Source: Minisyncoccota bacterium
GTDB lineage: Bacteria > Patescibacteriota > Minisyncoccia > Phycocordibacterales > JABAAK01
Length of the DNA stretch: 64,000 nt
Assembly (NCBI GenBank): GCA_963668425.1
Contig: OY764332.1
Location: forward strand, 259,903-323,902
Direction: 5' to 3'
Shown here: one piece after another, positions 1,520-62,147 of the stretch
Position numbering within the stretch: the first letter of the stretch is position 1
Layout of the letters: the number at the start of each line of letters is the position of its first letter
Translations under genes and position numbers: made by a program
Notes under the pieces: model-generated
Told to the model about the DNA's origin: nothing
What the model saw: the letters and a program-made list of their open reading frames with translations, nothing else
The model's database searches: none

Positions 1520-1771
1520 TTGTGTATGCAAAACGAGATAGATAAAAATTATGAGGCATTTCTGAAGGAATTGCCTGAATTGCTGAAAGATAAAAACAAT
1601 CTTAATAAGTTTTCTCTTTGGCATGATGGTAGCATGGTTGGTATTTTTGACACGGAGTCGGATGCTATTAACATTGGAAAGGAAAAGTATAAGGAGTTTG
1701 GAAATTTTTCTATTCAGCAAATAACAAATAATGATGGGCTTGATCTTGGTTTTATCTCCTTATGTCAGTAA
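1520..1771 (+). CDS. Hypothetical small protein (83 aa), overlaps the start of the downstream aspartic protease gene
   Basis: ORF only. The 10-bp overlap with the next gene suggests translational coupling. No recognizable motif. Confidence 0.3.
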   Translation: MCMQNEIDKNYEAFLKELPELLKDKNNLNKFSLWHDGSMVGIFDTESDAINIGKEKYKEFGNFSIQQITNNDGLDLGFISLCQ

Positions 1772-2148
1772 TATCTTCAGATTTTCGTATCCCGCATGAC
1801 AATAGACCTCATTTACATGTTGATGTTTTGTATGGTGAGAAACACATTACTGTGGTTGCCTTGATTGACACAGGAGCACAGAATTGTTGTATTTCAAATG
1901 AAAAAGCGGCAGAGTTAGGTCTTCCTGTGTTAGGAAAGACAGTCATGCAAGGATCCGCAGGAGAGACACCAACAAATATCTATAAAATTGATTCTATTGT
2001 GTTACCAAACGGGTTTGTTTATAGGAAGGCTGGTATTGTTGGTTATACGAAATGTGCTGCTACTGCTGACATTATCTTAGGGATGGATTTGTTAGGATTG
2101 GGATTCTTCTCTGTTTCTTTTGACGGAACGATGATTATTGCGCTATAA
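1762..2148 (+). CDS. Retropepsin-like (clan AA) aspartic protease, 128 aa
   Basis: Catalytic motif hhhALIDTGAQ (VVALIDTGAQNCCIS) and a C-terminal IILGMDLL motif typical of dimeric retropepsin-type proteases. Confidence 0.6.
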   Translation: MSVISSDFRIPHDNRPHLHVDVLYGEKHITVVALIDTGAQNCCISNEKAAELGLPVLGKTVMQGSAGETPTNIYKIDSIVLPNGFVYRKAGIVGYTKCAATADIILGMDLLGLGFFSVSFDGTMIIAL

Positions 2149-22505: not shown

Positions 22506-22855
22506 TTCATTGACCTGAACTATAAGCCGGATTCTGTACCCACTTTACGTGGGTGGTAATCATTTATCTTGACACGCCGTTGCCGGCGTGTTCTTTGCGG
22601 CACTCCGTTGCATTGCTGCCTCGGCACGACCTTGCACTCAGGTAGGAATTTAGCCGTTTCACCACCGCGTTGCCACGGTATTCACCTCAGAGAGGTGCCC
22701 TCACTTCTCAGATTGGGCGTCACTGCTCGCATCCCTCGGTTTTCACCAGACGGGCGTTACCCGCTACCCTGCTCCACCAAAGAGTGGGAGTGTCCGGACT
22801 TTCCTCTCGTTGCTTGTTACAACGAGCGATTACCTGTTCGGGTAGTTATAGTATA
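22506..22855 (-). ncRNA. rnpB: RNase P RNA (bacterial type A), about 350 nt
   Basis: The minus strand carries the universally conserved P4 strands: AGGAAAGUCCGGAC near the 5' end and ACAGAAUCCGGCUUAUAGUUCAGGUCA at the 3' end. P1 pairing ACUAUAA/UUAUAGU. ORFs 22569..23440(+) on the opposite strand are spurious. Confidence 0.85.
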
Positions 22856-59768: not shown

Positions 59769-59841
59769 CCACCTGTAGCTCAATTGGTAGAGCACTCGTC
59801 TTATACACGGGCGGTTCCTGGTTCGAGTCCAGGCGGGTGGA
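59769..59841 (+). tRNA. tRNA with anticodon TAT (Ile-UAU type)
   Basis: Hand fold: acceptor CCACCTG/CGGGTGG (C1-G72, one UG pair), D-arm GCTCAATTGGTAGAGC, anticodon stem CTCGT/ACGGG, loop CTTATAC, T-arm CCTGG-TTCGAGT-CCAGG. Confidence 0.7.
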
Positions 59842-59900
59842 CTATGTACTGACGCCCTTCCGTCAGTGTTTTGTTTATTAGAGACAACTCTGATGGTGGA

Positions 59901-60296
59901 TTATAGAATATCGGCATATTCAGGATGGTTTTTCTTGACAACACTTTTCCATTGCGTAGTTTCATTGCCAGAGCCAGCAAGGTCTGTCTTGTTGTATACG
60001 AGTAACACTTGTACCTCTTTTTTTTCAGTGTGTACTGCAACTATACACCGATTGCCCGATCCACCTTTTGATTGATTTGTTCCCGCAATACGGAATTTTG
60101 TTTTGCATATTTTAATACCTCTCTTCTCAATAATAGTTTCCGCAGTATTTTCTTCAAAAAGGAGATCAAAAAACTCAAACTCCCTTTGCAGGGCAACTAG
60201 CGTAATATCCCATCCTCTTTTGTATTTTTTTCTAAAGCGTTTTATGTAATGTCGTTCCGTGAAGGGGTGTATATAAACAGTGTATTTAATAGACAT
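59901..60296 (-). CDS. Small basic protein (about 131 aa from MSIKYTVYIHPF), candidate toxin partner of the upstream HTH-Panacea protein
   Basis: Translationally coupled (about 11-nt overlap) to 60286..60996. Motif GNRCIVAVHTEKKEVQVLLVYNKTD is vaguely RelE/HigB-like, but no confident family assignment. Confidence 0.4.
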   Translation of the reverse strand: MSIKYTVYIHPFTERHYIKRFRKKYKRGWDITLVALQREFEFFDLLFEENTAETIIEKRGIKICKTKFRIAGTNQSKGGSGNRCIVAVHTEKKEVQVLLVYNKTDLAGSGNETTQWKSVVKKNHPEYADIL

Positions 60297-60996
60297 ATTC
60301 TGGATCTTCCTGGGTGATGAGTTCGTATGATATATGTGCCCCTTCTTCACAAAACTTATACGGCATTTGGTTGTGCGTAAAGTCAACGATTTCTCGTGTG
60401 TTTTTATTTTTCCATTTTTTTGCTATCTTCGCAATGAATGTCTTTTCTTCTGCTGAAAGCAGGTCGGTTGGCTCATCAGCCCCTTTTCTTGTTTGAGATA
60501 TAAGCATTGCCCCTTCTTCCGTCTGCCGTATATCCAACTTTTTTTGTTCGTATAGGTCATCAATGATACGAAAATATGCATCAGGAACAGGACCATATTG
60601 TATTTTTCGGTACTGCATATCACTCATACTTTTCAGATGTTCGTAGTACCAACCGAAGTCGGCAAGATAGAGAAGTTTTGCAAGTTTTGTTTTTGGCACC
60701 TTTTTGCTTTTTGAAATATCGTTCCGTAGAAATGTAAACAGCATTTGCTTGTACTTCTCAAAGTTCTGCATAGGTTCACCAAGAAAGGTGCTGGCTTGTA
60801 TACCAAGGATATCAGCTAACTTTTTTGCCTCTGCTATGCATAATTCTCGTACACCCTTCTCAAGGGCGATATATGAGGCGCGAGAAATACCTAACTTGTC
60901 GGCAACTTGTTGTTGCGTGAGTTTTTTTTGTTTCCGTAGGTTATTTATAATTGGGCCGTTTGTTTTGTCTTTTTTGTTGCGCATAGTGTATGTCAT
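60286..60996 (-). CDS. HTH (XRE-type) plus Panacea/DUF4065 domain protein (PanA/SocA-like antitoxin architecture)
   Basis: N-terminal Cro/C1 HTH (LRKQKKLTQQQVADKLGISRASYIALEKG). C-terminal KLLYLADFGWY...YGPV block typical of DUF4065. Confidence 0.6.
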   Translation of the reverse strand: MTYTMRNKKDKTNGPIINNLRKQKKLTQQQVADKLGISRASYIALEKGVRELCIAEAKKLADILGIQASTFLGEPMQNFEKYKQMLFTFLRNDISKSKKVPKTKLAKLLYLADFGWYYEHLKSMSDMQYRKIQYGPVPDAYFRIIDDLYEQKKLDIRQTEEGAMLISQTRKGADEPTDLLSAEEKTFIAKIAKKWKNKNTREIVDFTHNQMPYKFCEEGAHISYELITQEDPEYVY

Positions 60997-61091
60997 TCTG
61001 CACTTTTCGGTACAAGAATGATACGAGTATCTTTATTGTACCGAACTTTTAAAATAATGTCAATAAAATTATACACACTCTGTCAAAGATA

Positions 61092-61120
61092 TTGACATCT
61101 AAACCCCAGAATGTTATAAT
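61092..61120 (+). promoter_or_regulatory. Sigma70-like promoter (TTGACA-17-TATAAT) for the 61130 gene; divergent from the HTH-Panacea operon
   Basis: ttgacatctaaaccccagaatgttataat. Upstream direct repeats tgtcaa...tgtcaa may be an operator. Confidence 0.45.
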
Positions 61121-61129
61121 GATGGAGTT

Positions 61130-61582
61130 ATGATTGAAAGAAGTTCATCAACAAATAAAAACACCTTCAAAAAACAGTGGTCTGATTTTTCCCAGGCAGC
61201 GTTTGCGCCAGAAACTGTCTTCTTTGCCGCAATAACACTGTTCTGTCTCCTAACATCCCTTCTCCCATTTGATTCTTCAACTGGTTCTCTGGCGACGTCT
61301 ATTTCCCCCGTTTTGAGAGTGTTGTCTGTTGCCCTTTCCGGTTTCACTGTTGCGGCATTTCAGAAGAACAATAATTCTGTTATAAGCAAGGAGAGTGTTC
61401 TTGGTGATGGCAGAACTGTTATGAGGCGTATTGTAGCTCTGGAATCGGATGTTGATAATCTGTTAGTATTAGCATCTAACAAAAAAGTTAATAAGCAGGA
61501 GCTGGCCAGGCATATCGAATCTTTTCCACGACATATAAAACTAATGAAGGATGATTTATTTGATCTTTTTCTTAGCGACTAG
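61130..61582 (+). CDS. Hypothetical membrane protein (150 aa)
   Basis: ORF with two TM helices, immediately after a good promoter. Confidence 0.35.
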   Translation: MIERSSSTNKNTFKKQWSDFSQAAFAPETVFFAAITLFCLLTSLLPFDSSTGSLATSISPVLRVLSVALSGFTVAAFQKNNNSVISKESVLGDGRTVMRRIVALESDVDNLLVLASNKKVNKQELARHIESFPRHIKLMKDDLFDLFLSD

Positions 61583-61721: not shown

Positions 61722-62147
61722 TTGTGTTGTGCATTATGTTTTAGTTTTTTATTGGCATACTGTATTTATATGTATATTAGGAAAAATATTGGGGAGGTGG
61801 TGAAGGTGGGACTTATTCCAGCACTTATTGCTTCGTTGTGTTGTTTGTCTCCGGTCTTGCTTGTTTCGCTTGGTGTGGTTTCGGTTAGTGTTGCTGGTGA
61901 TCTTACTGATGTGCTTTATGGAGAGCACAAATGGTTGTTTCGTGCTGCCGGGCTTGTTGCCCTTACTGTTTTTACTGTTTCGTATCTTAAAAGAAAGAAA
62001 AAGATTTGTACACTGAATGATGTGCATAGACGAAGAAATGAGATTATCAACACTGTGTTTCTTATACTCATCGTTAGTATTGTGCTTTATATTATCTTTT
62101 TGTATGGCGTTGTTGAATTAATTGGGTTGGGGTTGGGTATTTGGTAG
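61722..62147 (+). CDS. Hypothetical integral membrane protein (141 aa, 3-4 TM)
   Basis: ORF, strongly hydrophobic. Confidence 0.35.
   Translation: MCCALCFSFLLAYCIYMYIRKNIGEVVKVGLIPALIASLCCLSPVLLVSLGVVSVSVAGDLTDVLYGEHKWLFRAAGLVALTVFTVSYLKRKKKICTLNDVHRRRNEIINTVFLILIVSIVLYIIFLYGVVELIGLGLGIW

Follow-up and report, generated by a model that had tools for sequence, protein, structure and literature searches.

Two overlapping genes on the reverse strand of a 64,000-nucleotide (nt) stretch of contig OY764332.1 from a Minisyncoccota bacterium (positions 259,903 to 323,902; the whole of this stretch is called the window below) form a cassette that we read, with a probability of roughly 75%, as an autoregulated type II PanAT toxin-antitoxin (TA) module with a toxin of the HigB-2/RelE type. 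The upstream gene, panA, encodes a protein with an XRE-type helix-turn-helix (HTH) domain followed by a Panacea (DUF4065, PF13274) domain. The downstream gene, panT, encodes a small basic protein, the predicted toxin. A first-pass annotation of the sequence had proposed a possible novel TA pair at this position, in which the small partner was uncharacterised, perhaps a novel toxin, and matched no toxin family that could be named with confidence.

The panT product has 131 residues and a pI of 9.6, contains GNRCIVAVHTEKKEVQVLLVYNKTD, and its gene overlaps panA by exactly 11 nt, in agreement with the small basic gene of about 131 codons and the overlap of about 11 nt first described. As a single query, it matched nothing in Pfam, NCBIfam, PHROGs, PADLOC or, by phmmer, the PDB sequences, and hidden Markov model (HMM) scans of individual family members against Pfam and NCBIfam returned noise, with no model matched consistently. 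To this extent the failure to name a toxin family was borne out; fold and profile comparisons nevertheless place the protein as a divergent member of the HigB-2/RelE group.

An AlphaFold2 model of the toxin, built from 45 homologues (predicted local distance difference test, pLDDT, 90.9; predicted template modelling score, pTM, 0.85), has the topology β-α-α-β-β-β-β-α, with strands at residues 6-9, 52-58, 61-68, 82-89 and 94-102 and helices at residues 11-25, 27-41 and 112-123. The model comprises the strand, two helices, antiparallel three- to four-stranded sheet and optional C-terminal helix by which the RelE/ParE superfamily is recognised. When the model was compared by Foldseek with known folds in the PDB, a check against toxin folds that the first-pass annotation had suggested, RelE/ParE-fold proteins or domains occupied ranks 1-26 and 28-41 of the top 41 matches, rank 27 being a domain of an unrelated carotenoid protein. 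Among the RelE/ParE-fold matches were archaeal aRelE, HigB2, YoeB, RelE, HigB, YafQ, the RelE-like domain of Cami1 and PfiT; the top match had an E value of 1.9e-3, a probability of 1.0 and a template modelling (TM) score of 0.71 normalised to the target.

Profile comparisons point to one branch of this superfamily. A profile of 65 diverse members of the small-protein family (A2) found a sole match among all PDB sequences by hmmsearch, Vibrio cholerae HigB-2, at a marginal E value of 0.017; a narrower profile (A1) found none. In the A2 alignment, the toxin segment SGNR83-CIVAV...LLVY101-N-K103 lies opposite GGSR64-IIYY...LLTIY82-G-K84 of HigB-2. As a HigB-2/PF06296 comparator we used an alignment of 11 HigB-2-type plasmid toxins (A6); the V. 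tapetis homologue, 93% identical over the queried fragment, matches PF06296 with E 1.4e-9. Aligned to A6 with hhalign, A2 gave a probability of 92% and an E value of 6.5e-7 over 72 columns at about 21% identity. The Gp49 family (PF05973, phage N15 gp49) was also tried as the branch of the toxin and was rejected, with an hhalign probability of 0.2% between A2 and a Gp49 alignment (A3). Given the fold, the profile homology and the alignment of catalytic residues, the partner appears to be a very divergent HigB-2/RelE-type toxin and not a new fold; sequence profile and predicted structure place it in the RelE superfamily as a divergent member, with HigB-2/PF06296 as its nearest group.

The predicted catalytic site carries the same signal. 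In the profile alignments, toxin residues K65, K67, R83, Y101 and K103 lie opposite HigB-2 residues K49, R51, R64, Y82 and K84, and alanine mutants of HigB-2 Arg51, Arg64, Tyr82 and Lys84 lose activity 170- to 3000-fold (PMC5416850). Three of these four positions are kept in the family as R83, Y101 and K103, each invariant or at least 98% conserved. More broadly, all 77 loci share K65, R83, Y101, K103 and E112, and among the 65 distant members each of the five is found in 64 or 65. With RelE-superfamily membership indicated by both Foldseek and hhalign and the HigB-2 Arg, Tyr and Lys retained, the idea of an uncharacterised, possibly novel toxin is not supported. The fourth position differs: residue 67 (codon 60096-60098, reverse strand) is Lys in the window and two close relatives, Glu in 72 of 77 loci, and Asp or Glu in 49 of 65 distant members. 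The difference at residue 67 may mean that a single family has switched between two kinds of general-base chemistry, RelE-like with Lys and YoeB-like with Glu.

The small protein belongs to a sizeable family. A word-indexed search returned 258 related clusters at 55-82% identity, each annotated "hypothetical", and an exhaustive HMM search of 1.84 billion representatives gave 216 matches. Relatives occur in at least 185 species-level genomes, nearly all of them Patescibacteria, that is, of the candidate phyla radiation (CPR). With more than 250 homologues, 185 species genomes and a high-confidence fold, panT is not a chance open reading frame (ORF). Some cassette contigs (L007, L019, L013, L021, L055 and others) carry labels of Gammaproteobacteria, Verrucomicrobiota, Nanoarchaeota or Bacteroidia metagenome-assembled genomes (MAGs); their copies are about 55% identical to those of CPR genomes, and they are therefore probably mis-binned or mislabelled, or else recent transfers. 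The Coriobacteriales copy (L089) adjoins a molybdopterin oxidoreductase gene and may have a real non-CPR host.

The pairing with panA is a constant feature of this family wherever it was examined. Each of the first 85 loci (77 once eight duplicate contigs are set aside) has, directly upstream of the small gene and in the same orientation, an HTH-Panacea homologue of 47-65% identity, and the pairing recurs in two distant relatives of about 30-40% identity, from Saccharimonadales and Coriobacteriales MAGs. The search for homologues of the small gene beside Panacea genes elsewhere, also suggested by the first-pass annotation, thus came out in its favour. Of 80 module pairs, 79 from related loci and one from the window, 44 have an overlap of 11 nt and 20 one of 14 nt, and 15 have the genes 2-8 nt apart; altogether, 79 of the 80 have an overlap or a gap of at most 8 nt. 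Pairwise identities of PanA and toxin correlate (r = 0.71), and both proteins average about 58-60% identity across many CPR lineages. The flanking genes, in contrast, vary from genome to genome: there is no conserved third gene among the related loci, the biggest flanking cluster being shared by five of them. The FlaGs analysis of Kurata 2022 sought a conserved locus of two, at most three, genes with the partner less than 100 nt away in at least two species (PMC8832971); the present pair has that form at the 85 loci (77 distinct) in many species. At locus L024, a second, divergent Panacea-like coding region lies upstream of the cassette on the opposite strand (1708-2124, reverse strand), 28% identical to PanA residues 75-213 (E 5e-8), which suggests clustering of PanA paralogues.

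HMM searches support the domain assignment made for PanA at first pass, an XRE-type HTH joined to DUF4065/Panacea. HTH_3 matches residues 19-67 (E 3e-12, Pfam scan), and PF13274 (SocA_Panacea) matches over its full length (model 1-113 of 113, 59.4 bits against a cut-off of 25.7, E 8.2e-16); the segment KLLYLADFGWY...YGPV on which the original assignment was based is present in the ORF. The HTH of the PanA model superposes on those of C.BclI, CapH, SinR, HipB and HigA at a root-mean-square deviation of 1-2 Å. Outside the HTH domain, Foldseek matched little in the PDB, so the Panacea assignment depends on the HMM. The NCBIfam SocA_antitoxin model matched weakly (E 0.008, 15.9 bits against a cut-off of 190), and a PADLOC scan matched generic HTH models alone. 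PanA has no further domain besides HTH and Panacea. A public protein identical to PanA (P0391, 232 residues, 100% identity) begins at Met5, and the start of panA may for that reason be the ATG at 60984 and not the codon at 60996.

The C-terminal tail of PanA is of interest as a candidate toxin-binding segment. Residues E220, Y224, Q229, E230 and P232 are near-invariant in the family alignment, the last 22 residues have a mean net charge of -5.3 across the family, and pLDDT falls to 83-68 along the tail in the model. The acidic tail could plausibly bind the basic RNase cleft as a linear segment. Conservation of the tail has a confounder, however: its DNA also carries the ribosome-binding site and start codon of the toxin gene. 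Mirror-tree correlations computed by PanA region did not discriminate between candidate toxin-binding segments.

Upstream of panA, three copies of TGTCAA/TTGACA accompany promoters of near-perfect consensus. The strong divergent promoter with tgtcaa boxes noted at first pass is confirmed by matches at 12 of 12 consensus positions on the forward strand and 11 of 12 on the reverse strand, and the boxes proved to be conserved and operator-like. Across the family, box 1 reads (A/G)TGTCAA-N5/6-T(T/A)(A/G)ACA and lies upstream of the -35 element in most related loci. Box 2, about 23 bp downstream of box 1, reads TGTTTGAC-N6-T(T/G)ACA, also written TGTTTGAC-N6-TTACA; it overlaps or contains the -35 element in most loci and is followed by a -10 element TATACT/TATAAT. 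Of 80 upstream regions, the window's among them, 26 contain box 1 in its strict form, where shuffles predict 0.6. In 50 of these 80 regions (160 nt upstream of panA, L006-L085), the -10 element ends 6-9 nt before the panA ATG, a spacing that implies leaderless or near-leaderless mRNAs in many CPR genomes. As read from the sequence, the arrangement of boxes and promoter fits autorepression by the XRE-type HTH of PanA.

Several features of this region vary between loci. In the window, box 1 doubles as the -35 element of the divergent promoter, a departure from the family layout in addition to the leader and palindrome considered below. The palindrome over the -10 element and leader has 19-nt arms that are 89% complementary around a 2-nt centre (TTCGGTACAAGAATGATAC/GTATCTTTATTGTACCGAA) and is missing from most of the related loci; it might serve as a second operator, form a structured leader or be a scar of recombination. 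Loci L077, L033 and L054 carry GTAC-containing inverted repeats in place of the TGTCAA boxes. Some related loci have a hairpin about 110-130 nt upstream of panA, once per locus and on the operon strand, whose loop, (T/C)TCGAC(T/C)A.., is conserved and whose co-varying stem is variable (L041 2212-2231, L046 2193-2212, L060 2219-2242, L072 2199-2220, L073 501-522 and L082 2209-2236, with looser copies in L018, L022, L027, L028, L054 and L056). The window does not contain this hairpin, which may mark the edge of the cassette or a site of recombination, or may be a small structured RNA.

Table 1. Coordinates of the panAT cassette and its predicted control elements in the window.
Feature	Position	Strand	Basis
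panA, HTH-Panacea antitoxin gene, 236 residues	60286..60996	-	ORF list; Pfam HTH_3 and SocA_Panacea; AlphaFold2 model, pLDDT 88.6
XRE-type HTH DNA-binding domain of PanA, residues 17-71	60784..60948	-	HTH_3 E 3e-12; HTH_19 E 4.5e-11; Foldseek
Panacea (DUF4065, PF13274) domain of PanA, residues 105-214	60355..60684	-	PF13274 E 8.2e-16; phrog_1281 E 6.5e-14
Acidic C-terminal tail of PanA, residues 215-236, ending ISYELITQEDPEYVY; candidate toxin-binding segment	60289..60354	-	Conservation, charge, pLDDT
panT, 131-residue basic toxin gene (predicted), divergent HigB-2/RelE-family member; ATG at 60296, stop at 59901	59901..60296	-	AlphaFold2, Foldseek, profile comparison
Overlap of panA stop and toxin start, 11 nt	60286..60296	-	Direct reading; 11 nt shared by 44/80 pairs
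Shine-Dalgarno-like AGGAAG within the coding sequence of panA, 9 nt before the toxin ATG	60306..60311	-	Direct reading
Predicted catalytic core of toxin, residues 65-103: K65, K67, SGNR83C, Y101, K103	59988..60104	-	Conservation and HigB-2 alignment
Predicted panAT promoter: -35 TTGACA 61063-61058, 17-nt spacer, -10 TACAAT 61040-61035	61035..61063	-	11/12 consensus matches
Divergent consensus promoter TTGACA-17-TATAAT for ORF 61130..61582, -35 within box 1	61092..61120	+	12/12 matches
Operator-like box 1, exact palindrome TGTCAA-N5-TTGACA (general form TGT-N11-ACA), supplying the -35 of the forward-strand promoter	61081..61097		Repeat/pattern search
Operator-like box 2, TGTATAATTTTATTGACA (TGT-N12-ACA), overlapping the panAT -35	61058..61075	-	Direct reading
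Near-perfect 40-bp palindrome over the -10 box and 5' leader	61006..61045		Repeat I1

With domain identities, fold, profile homology, conservation of catalytic residues, gene pairing and operator and promoter layout computed in silico, we infer toxicity, ribosome dependence, a neutralising segment of PanA and repression, which together would make up the following mechanism. Free toxin would enter the ribosomal A site and cleave translating mRNA through K65, R83, Y101 and K103, by analogy with HigB-2 and as the alignments and model suggest. The Panacea domain, perhaps with the acidic C-terminal tail, would bind and neutralise it. The XRE-type HTH of PanA, probably as a dimer, would bind the TGT-N11-ACA boxes around and over the -35 element and so repress the operon; at the window locus it would probably repress the divergent promoter too. 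The 11-nt overlap, with the Shine-Dalgarno-like sequence within the 3' end of panA, would couple translation of the toxin to that of the antitoxin. PanAs are known to form complexes with their toxins, and five PanA-PanT pairs were stable in pull-down (Fig. 2C-G of PMC8832971). Stand-alone Panacea domains neutralise directly, while multidomain PanAs neutralise through add-on domains (Ernits 2023, PMC10440598).

Several observations weigh against an autoregulated PanAT module with a HigB-2/RelE-type toxin. In sequence, the toxin resembles HigB-2 weakly: in the Pfam scan the window protein did not match PF06296 even at E <= 1, one of 65 family members reaches that model (E 0.014), and the hhalign match is limited to the C-terminal 60% of the toxin. 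The equivalent of HigB-2 Arg51 is not conserved, being Glu or Asp in most members. The RelE/ParE fold is also that of gyrase poisons that are not RNases. The promoter layout of the window, with its 38-nt leader and 40-bp palindrome, is unlike the family norm. Eight of the PanTs tested by Kurata 2022 were non-toxic in E. coli, and five were not rescued by PanA (PMC8832971); moreover, the Panacea domain of multidomain PanAs may be a sensor and not a neutraliser (Ernits 2023, PMC10440598).

On the strength of the fold, the toxin could be ParE-like, a gyrase poison and not an mRNA cutter: ParE shares the fold, ParE-type PfiT is among the Foldseek matches (ranks 12-25), and ParE-like PanTs are known (PMC8832971). 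We hold this to be very unlikely, as the sequence-profile matches are confined to the mRNase HigB-2 family, three of four mutationally proven HigB-2 catalytic residues are invariant or near-invariant in the toxin, and RNases outrank the ParE-type Foldseek matches with better TM scores. The variable Arg51 equivalent would suit a domesticated, non-toxic pair in which the small protein, no longer a nuclease, acts as co-repressor or other accessory of an HTH-Panacea regulator of neighbouring genes, for instance the divergent 150-residue ORF. So would the mean identity of the two proteins across many CPR lineages, unusually high for a TA pair, and the overlap of box 1 with the -35 element of the divergent promoter in the window. 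This we find decidedly improbable: the other catalytic residues are invariant across the 65 diverse members, which argues for retained chemistry; the flanking genes are not conserved, and there is therefore no common regulatory target; and the tight translational coupling with the antitoxin gene first is the classic TA layout. PanA might alternatively neutralise indirectly, as in type VI systems: like SocA, it would be a proteolytic adaptor through which the toxin reaches ClpXP, and would not sequester it. SocA is the founding Panacea protein and the SocA_antitoxin model does match PanA weakly (E 0.008), but at 15.9 bits that match lies far from its cut-off of 190, the toxin is unrelated to SocB, and the five PanA-PanT pairs that were pulled down formed stable type II-like complexes (PMC8832971); of the readings considered, we give this one the least credence.

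A sensing role for Panacea leads to two further proposals. The cassette might be an abortive-infection or phage-defence switch, in which Panacea senses a phage- or host-derived cue and frees or activates the RNase; this would be compatible with the TA mechanism, and we rate it as possible but unlikely. Its neighbours in other genomes include a Mrr-type restriction nuclease and a Fic-like protein, that is, accessory-island genes, together with what we take to be a RhuM-like protein, which we count on the same side, and cassette contexts are variable and sometimes adjoin tRNA genes. The Panacea sensor proposal itself and the linkage of TA networks to defence systems point the same way (Ernits 2023, PMC10440598). 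On the other hand, the toxin has no PADLOC match and PanA matches generic HTH models only, the window cassette has housekeeping neighbours, and there is neither a known phage trigger nor, as yet, a routine way to challenge CPR hosts. A further proposal, which we consider improbable, is a mechanistically distinct RelE branch, almost wholly confined to CPR/Patescibacteria, in which most members are acidic at the Arg51 position, transcripts are mostly leaderless, and Panacea senses an episymbiosis-specific host or phage cue instead of acting as a plain antidote.

The autoregulated module with a HigB-2/RelE-type toxin can be set against known systems. PanAT systems were defined by Kurata 2022, with 343 HTH-PanAs and 88 toxin clusters (PMC8832971). 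In the entries of its Dataset S1 considered here, the PanT clusters with a HigB-2/RelE/ParE-like fold are T14, T28 and T59; T14, to which WP_015641600.1, WP_129619247.1 and WP_067091868.1 belong, is HigB-2-like by HHpred (99.7%), and its entries are annotated 'hypothetical protein' and all marked "notest" (PMC8832971). The T14 entries of Ca. Saccharimonas aalborgensis and an oral TM7 strain pair the toxin with an HTH-PanA, antitoxin first, at a distance of -11, as in the window. Given this shared architecture and the extension of the small-protein family into Saccharibacteria, the window family is probably T14 or a sister cluster, a comparison made on descriptions and not on sequences. The part of the Kurata 2022 data set considered here includes neither the lineage of the window nor the majority of the 185 species (Paceibacteria, Kaiserbacteria, Magasanikbacteria and others). 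The combination of an HTH-PanA with a HigB-2-like toxin is accordingly not new, at least as the T14 entries describe it, that pairing having been catalogued computationally. Of the possible novel TA pair proposed at first pass, what endures is a conserved, translationally coupled, TA-like PanA pair; its novelty does not. No paper on PanAT in CPR bacteria was found in the literature searched.

Among characterised toxins, V. cholerae HigB-2 (PF06296; PMC5416850) is the closest relative, sharing with the window toxin a RelE-type fold with a C-terminal helix, a Gly/Ser/Lys-rich loop before the catalytic Arg and an LL-x-x-Y-x-K motif, with Arg64, Tyr82, Lys84 and Lys49 opposite the invariant R83, Y101, K103 and K65. 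The window toxin differs in being about 20 residues longer at the N-terminus, in its low identity to the HigB-2 group (about 21% over 72 columns) with no above-threshold Pfam match, and at the Arg51 equivalent, which is Lys in the window and Glu/Asp in most of the family. The antitoxins share an XRE-type HTH; however, HigA-2 neutralises by an N-terminal disordered segment, has its HTH at the C-terminus and lacks Panacea, whereas PanA has its HTH at the N-terminus, ahead of Panacea and the acidic tail. Gene order also differs, with the toxin first in higBA2 and the antitoxin first in the window cassette. RelBE and YefM-YoeB of E. coli are likewise antitoxin-first, autoregulated operons with RelE-fold toxins (Foldseek ranks 6, 11, 20-21 and 29), and the window toxin is predicted by analogy to act as theirs do, by ribosome-dependent mRNA cleavage. 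The acidic residue on the second β-strand of most family members presumably recalls YoeB Glu46. The antitoxin folds of the two E. coli operons, ribbon-helix-helix or Phd/YefM, are unrelated to HTH-Panacea, and no sequence similarity is detectable. MqsR-PanA of Burkholderia fungorum/Herbaspirillum (PMC10440598) also joins a RelE-like RNase to a PanA with an HTH and a C-terminal Panacea domain, but there an extra N-terminal Zn-binding domain neutralises; the window PanA has no such domain, so its Panacea domain or C-terminal tail would have to neutralise.

In the window, the cassette sits between tRNA-Ile(UAU) and a few small membrane-protein ORFs. The tRNA-Ile gene (anticodon TAT; 59769-59842, forward strand) is convergent with the toxin gene and lies 59 nt downstream of it, preceded by genes for the housekeeping proteins PGK, TIM, UDG and dCTP deaminase. 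The UAU anticodon is uncommon in bacteria, where AUA is usually read by a lysidine-modified CAU tRNA; a second tRNA-Ile(UAU) was seen at the related locus L038 (5750-5823). In a Paceibacter genome, the cassette lies amid a cluster of seven tRNAs, the nearest on either side being no more than about 100 nt away (L029, 1942-4691). As a general rule, tRNA-targeted insertion was nonetheless discarded, a tRNA lying within about 150 nt in only about 6 of 60 loci. On the other side of the cassette, an ORF of 150 residues (61130-61582, forward strand) matches nothing in Pfam and, judged by eye, contains hydrophobic stretches that resemble membrane spans; it is followed by an ORF of 141 residues (61722-62147, forward strand) that is MerT-like (PF02411, E 4e-8). 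The G+C fraction is 0.37-0.40 at about 60.0-63.3 kb and 0.42-0.45 to the left. A class A bacterial RNase P RNA (128 bits; 22507-22845, reverse strand) and nine tRNA genes within the window are consistent with a chromosomal CPR segment and not a phage or plasmid.

The cassette does not reveal a new kind of system. What it offers for a "hypothetical" family of more than 250 clusters is a fold, together with a likely active site and a probable mode of action; the family is present in 185 species genomes or more, almost all from ultra-small CPR bacteria. At 236 and 131 residues with a defined operator, the pair is a compact and well-defined experimental candidate, and it presents a natural case in which a Panacea domain can be weighed against a short acidic tail as the neutraliser of a RelE-type RNase. 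With it, the picture of Panacea as a "universal antitoxin" domain reaches a poorly studied part of the tree.

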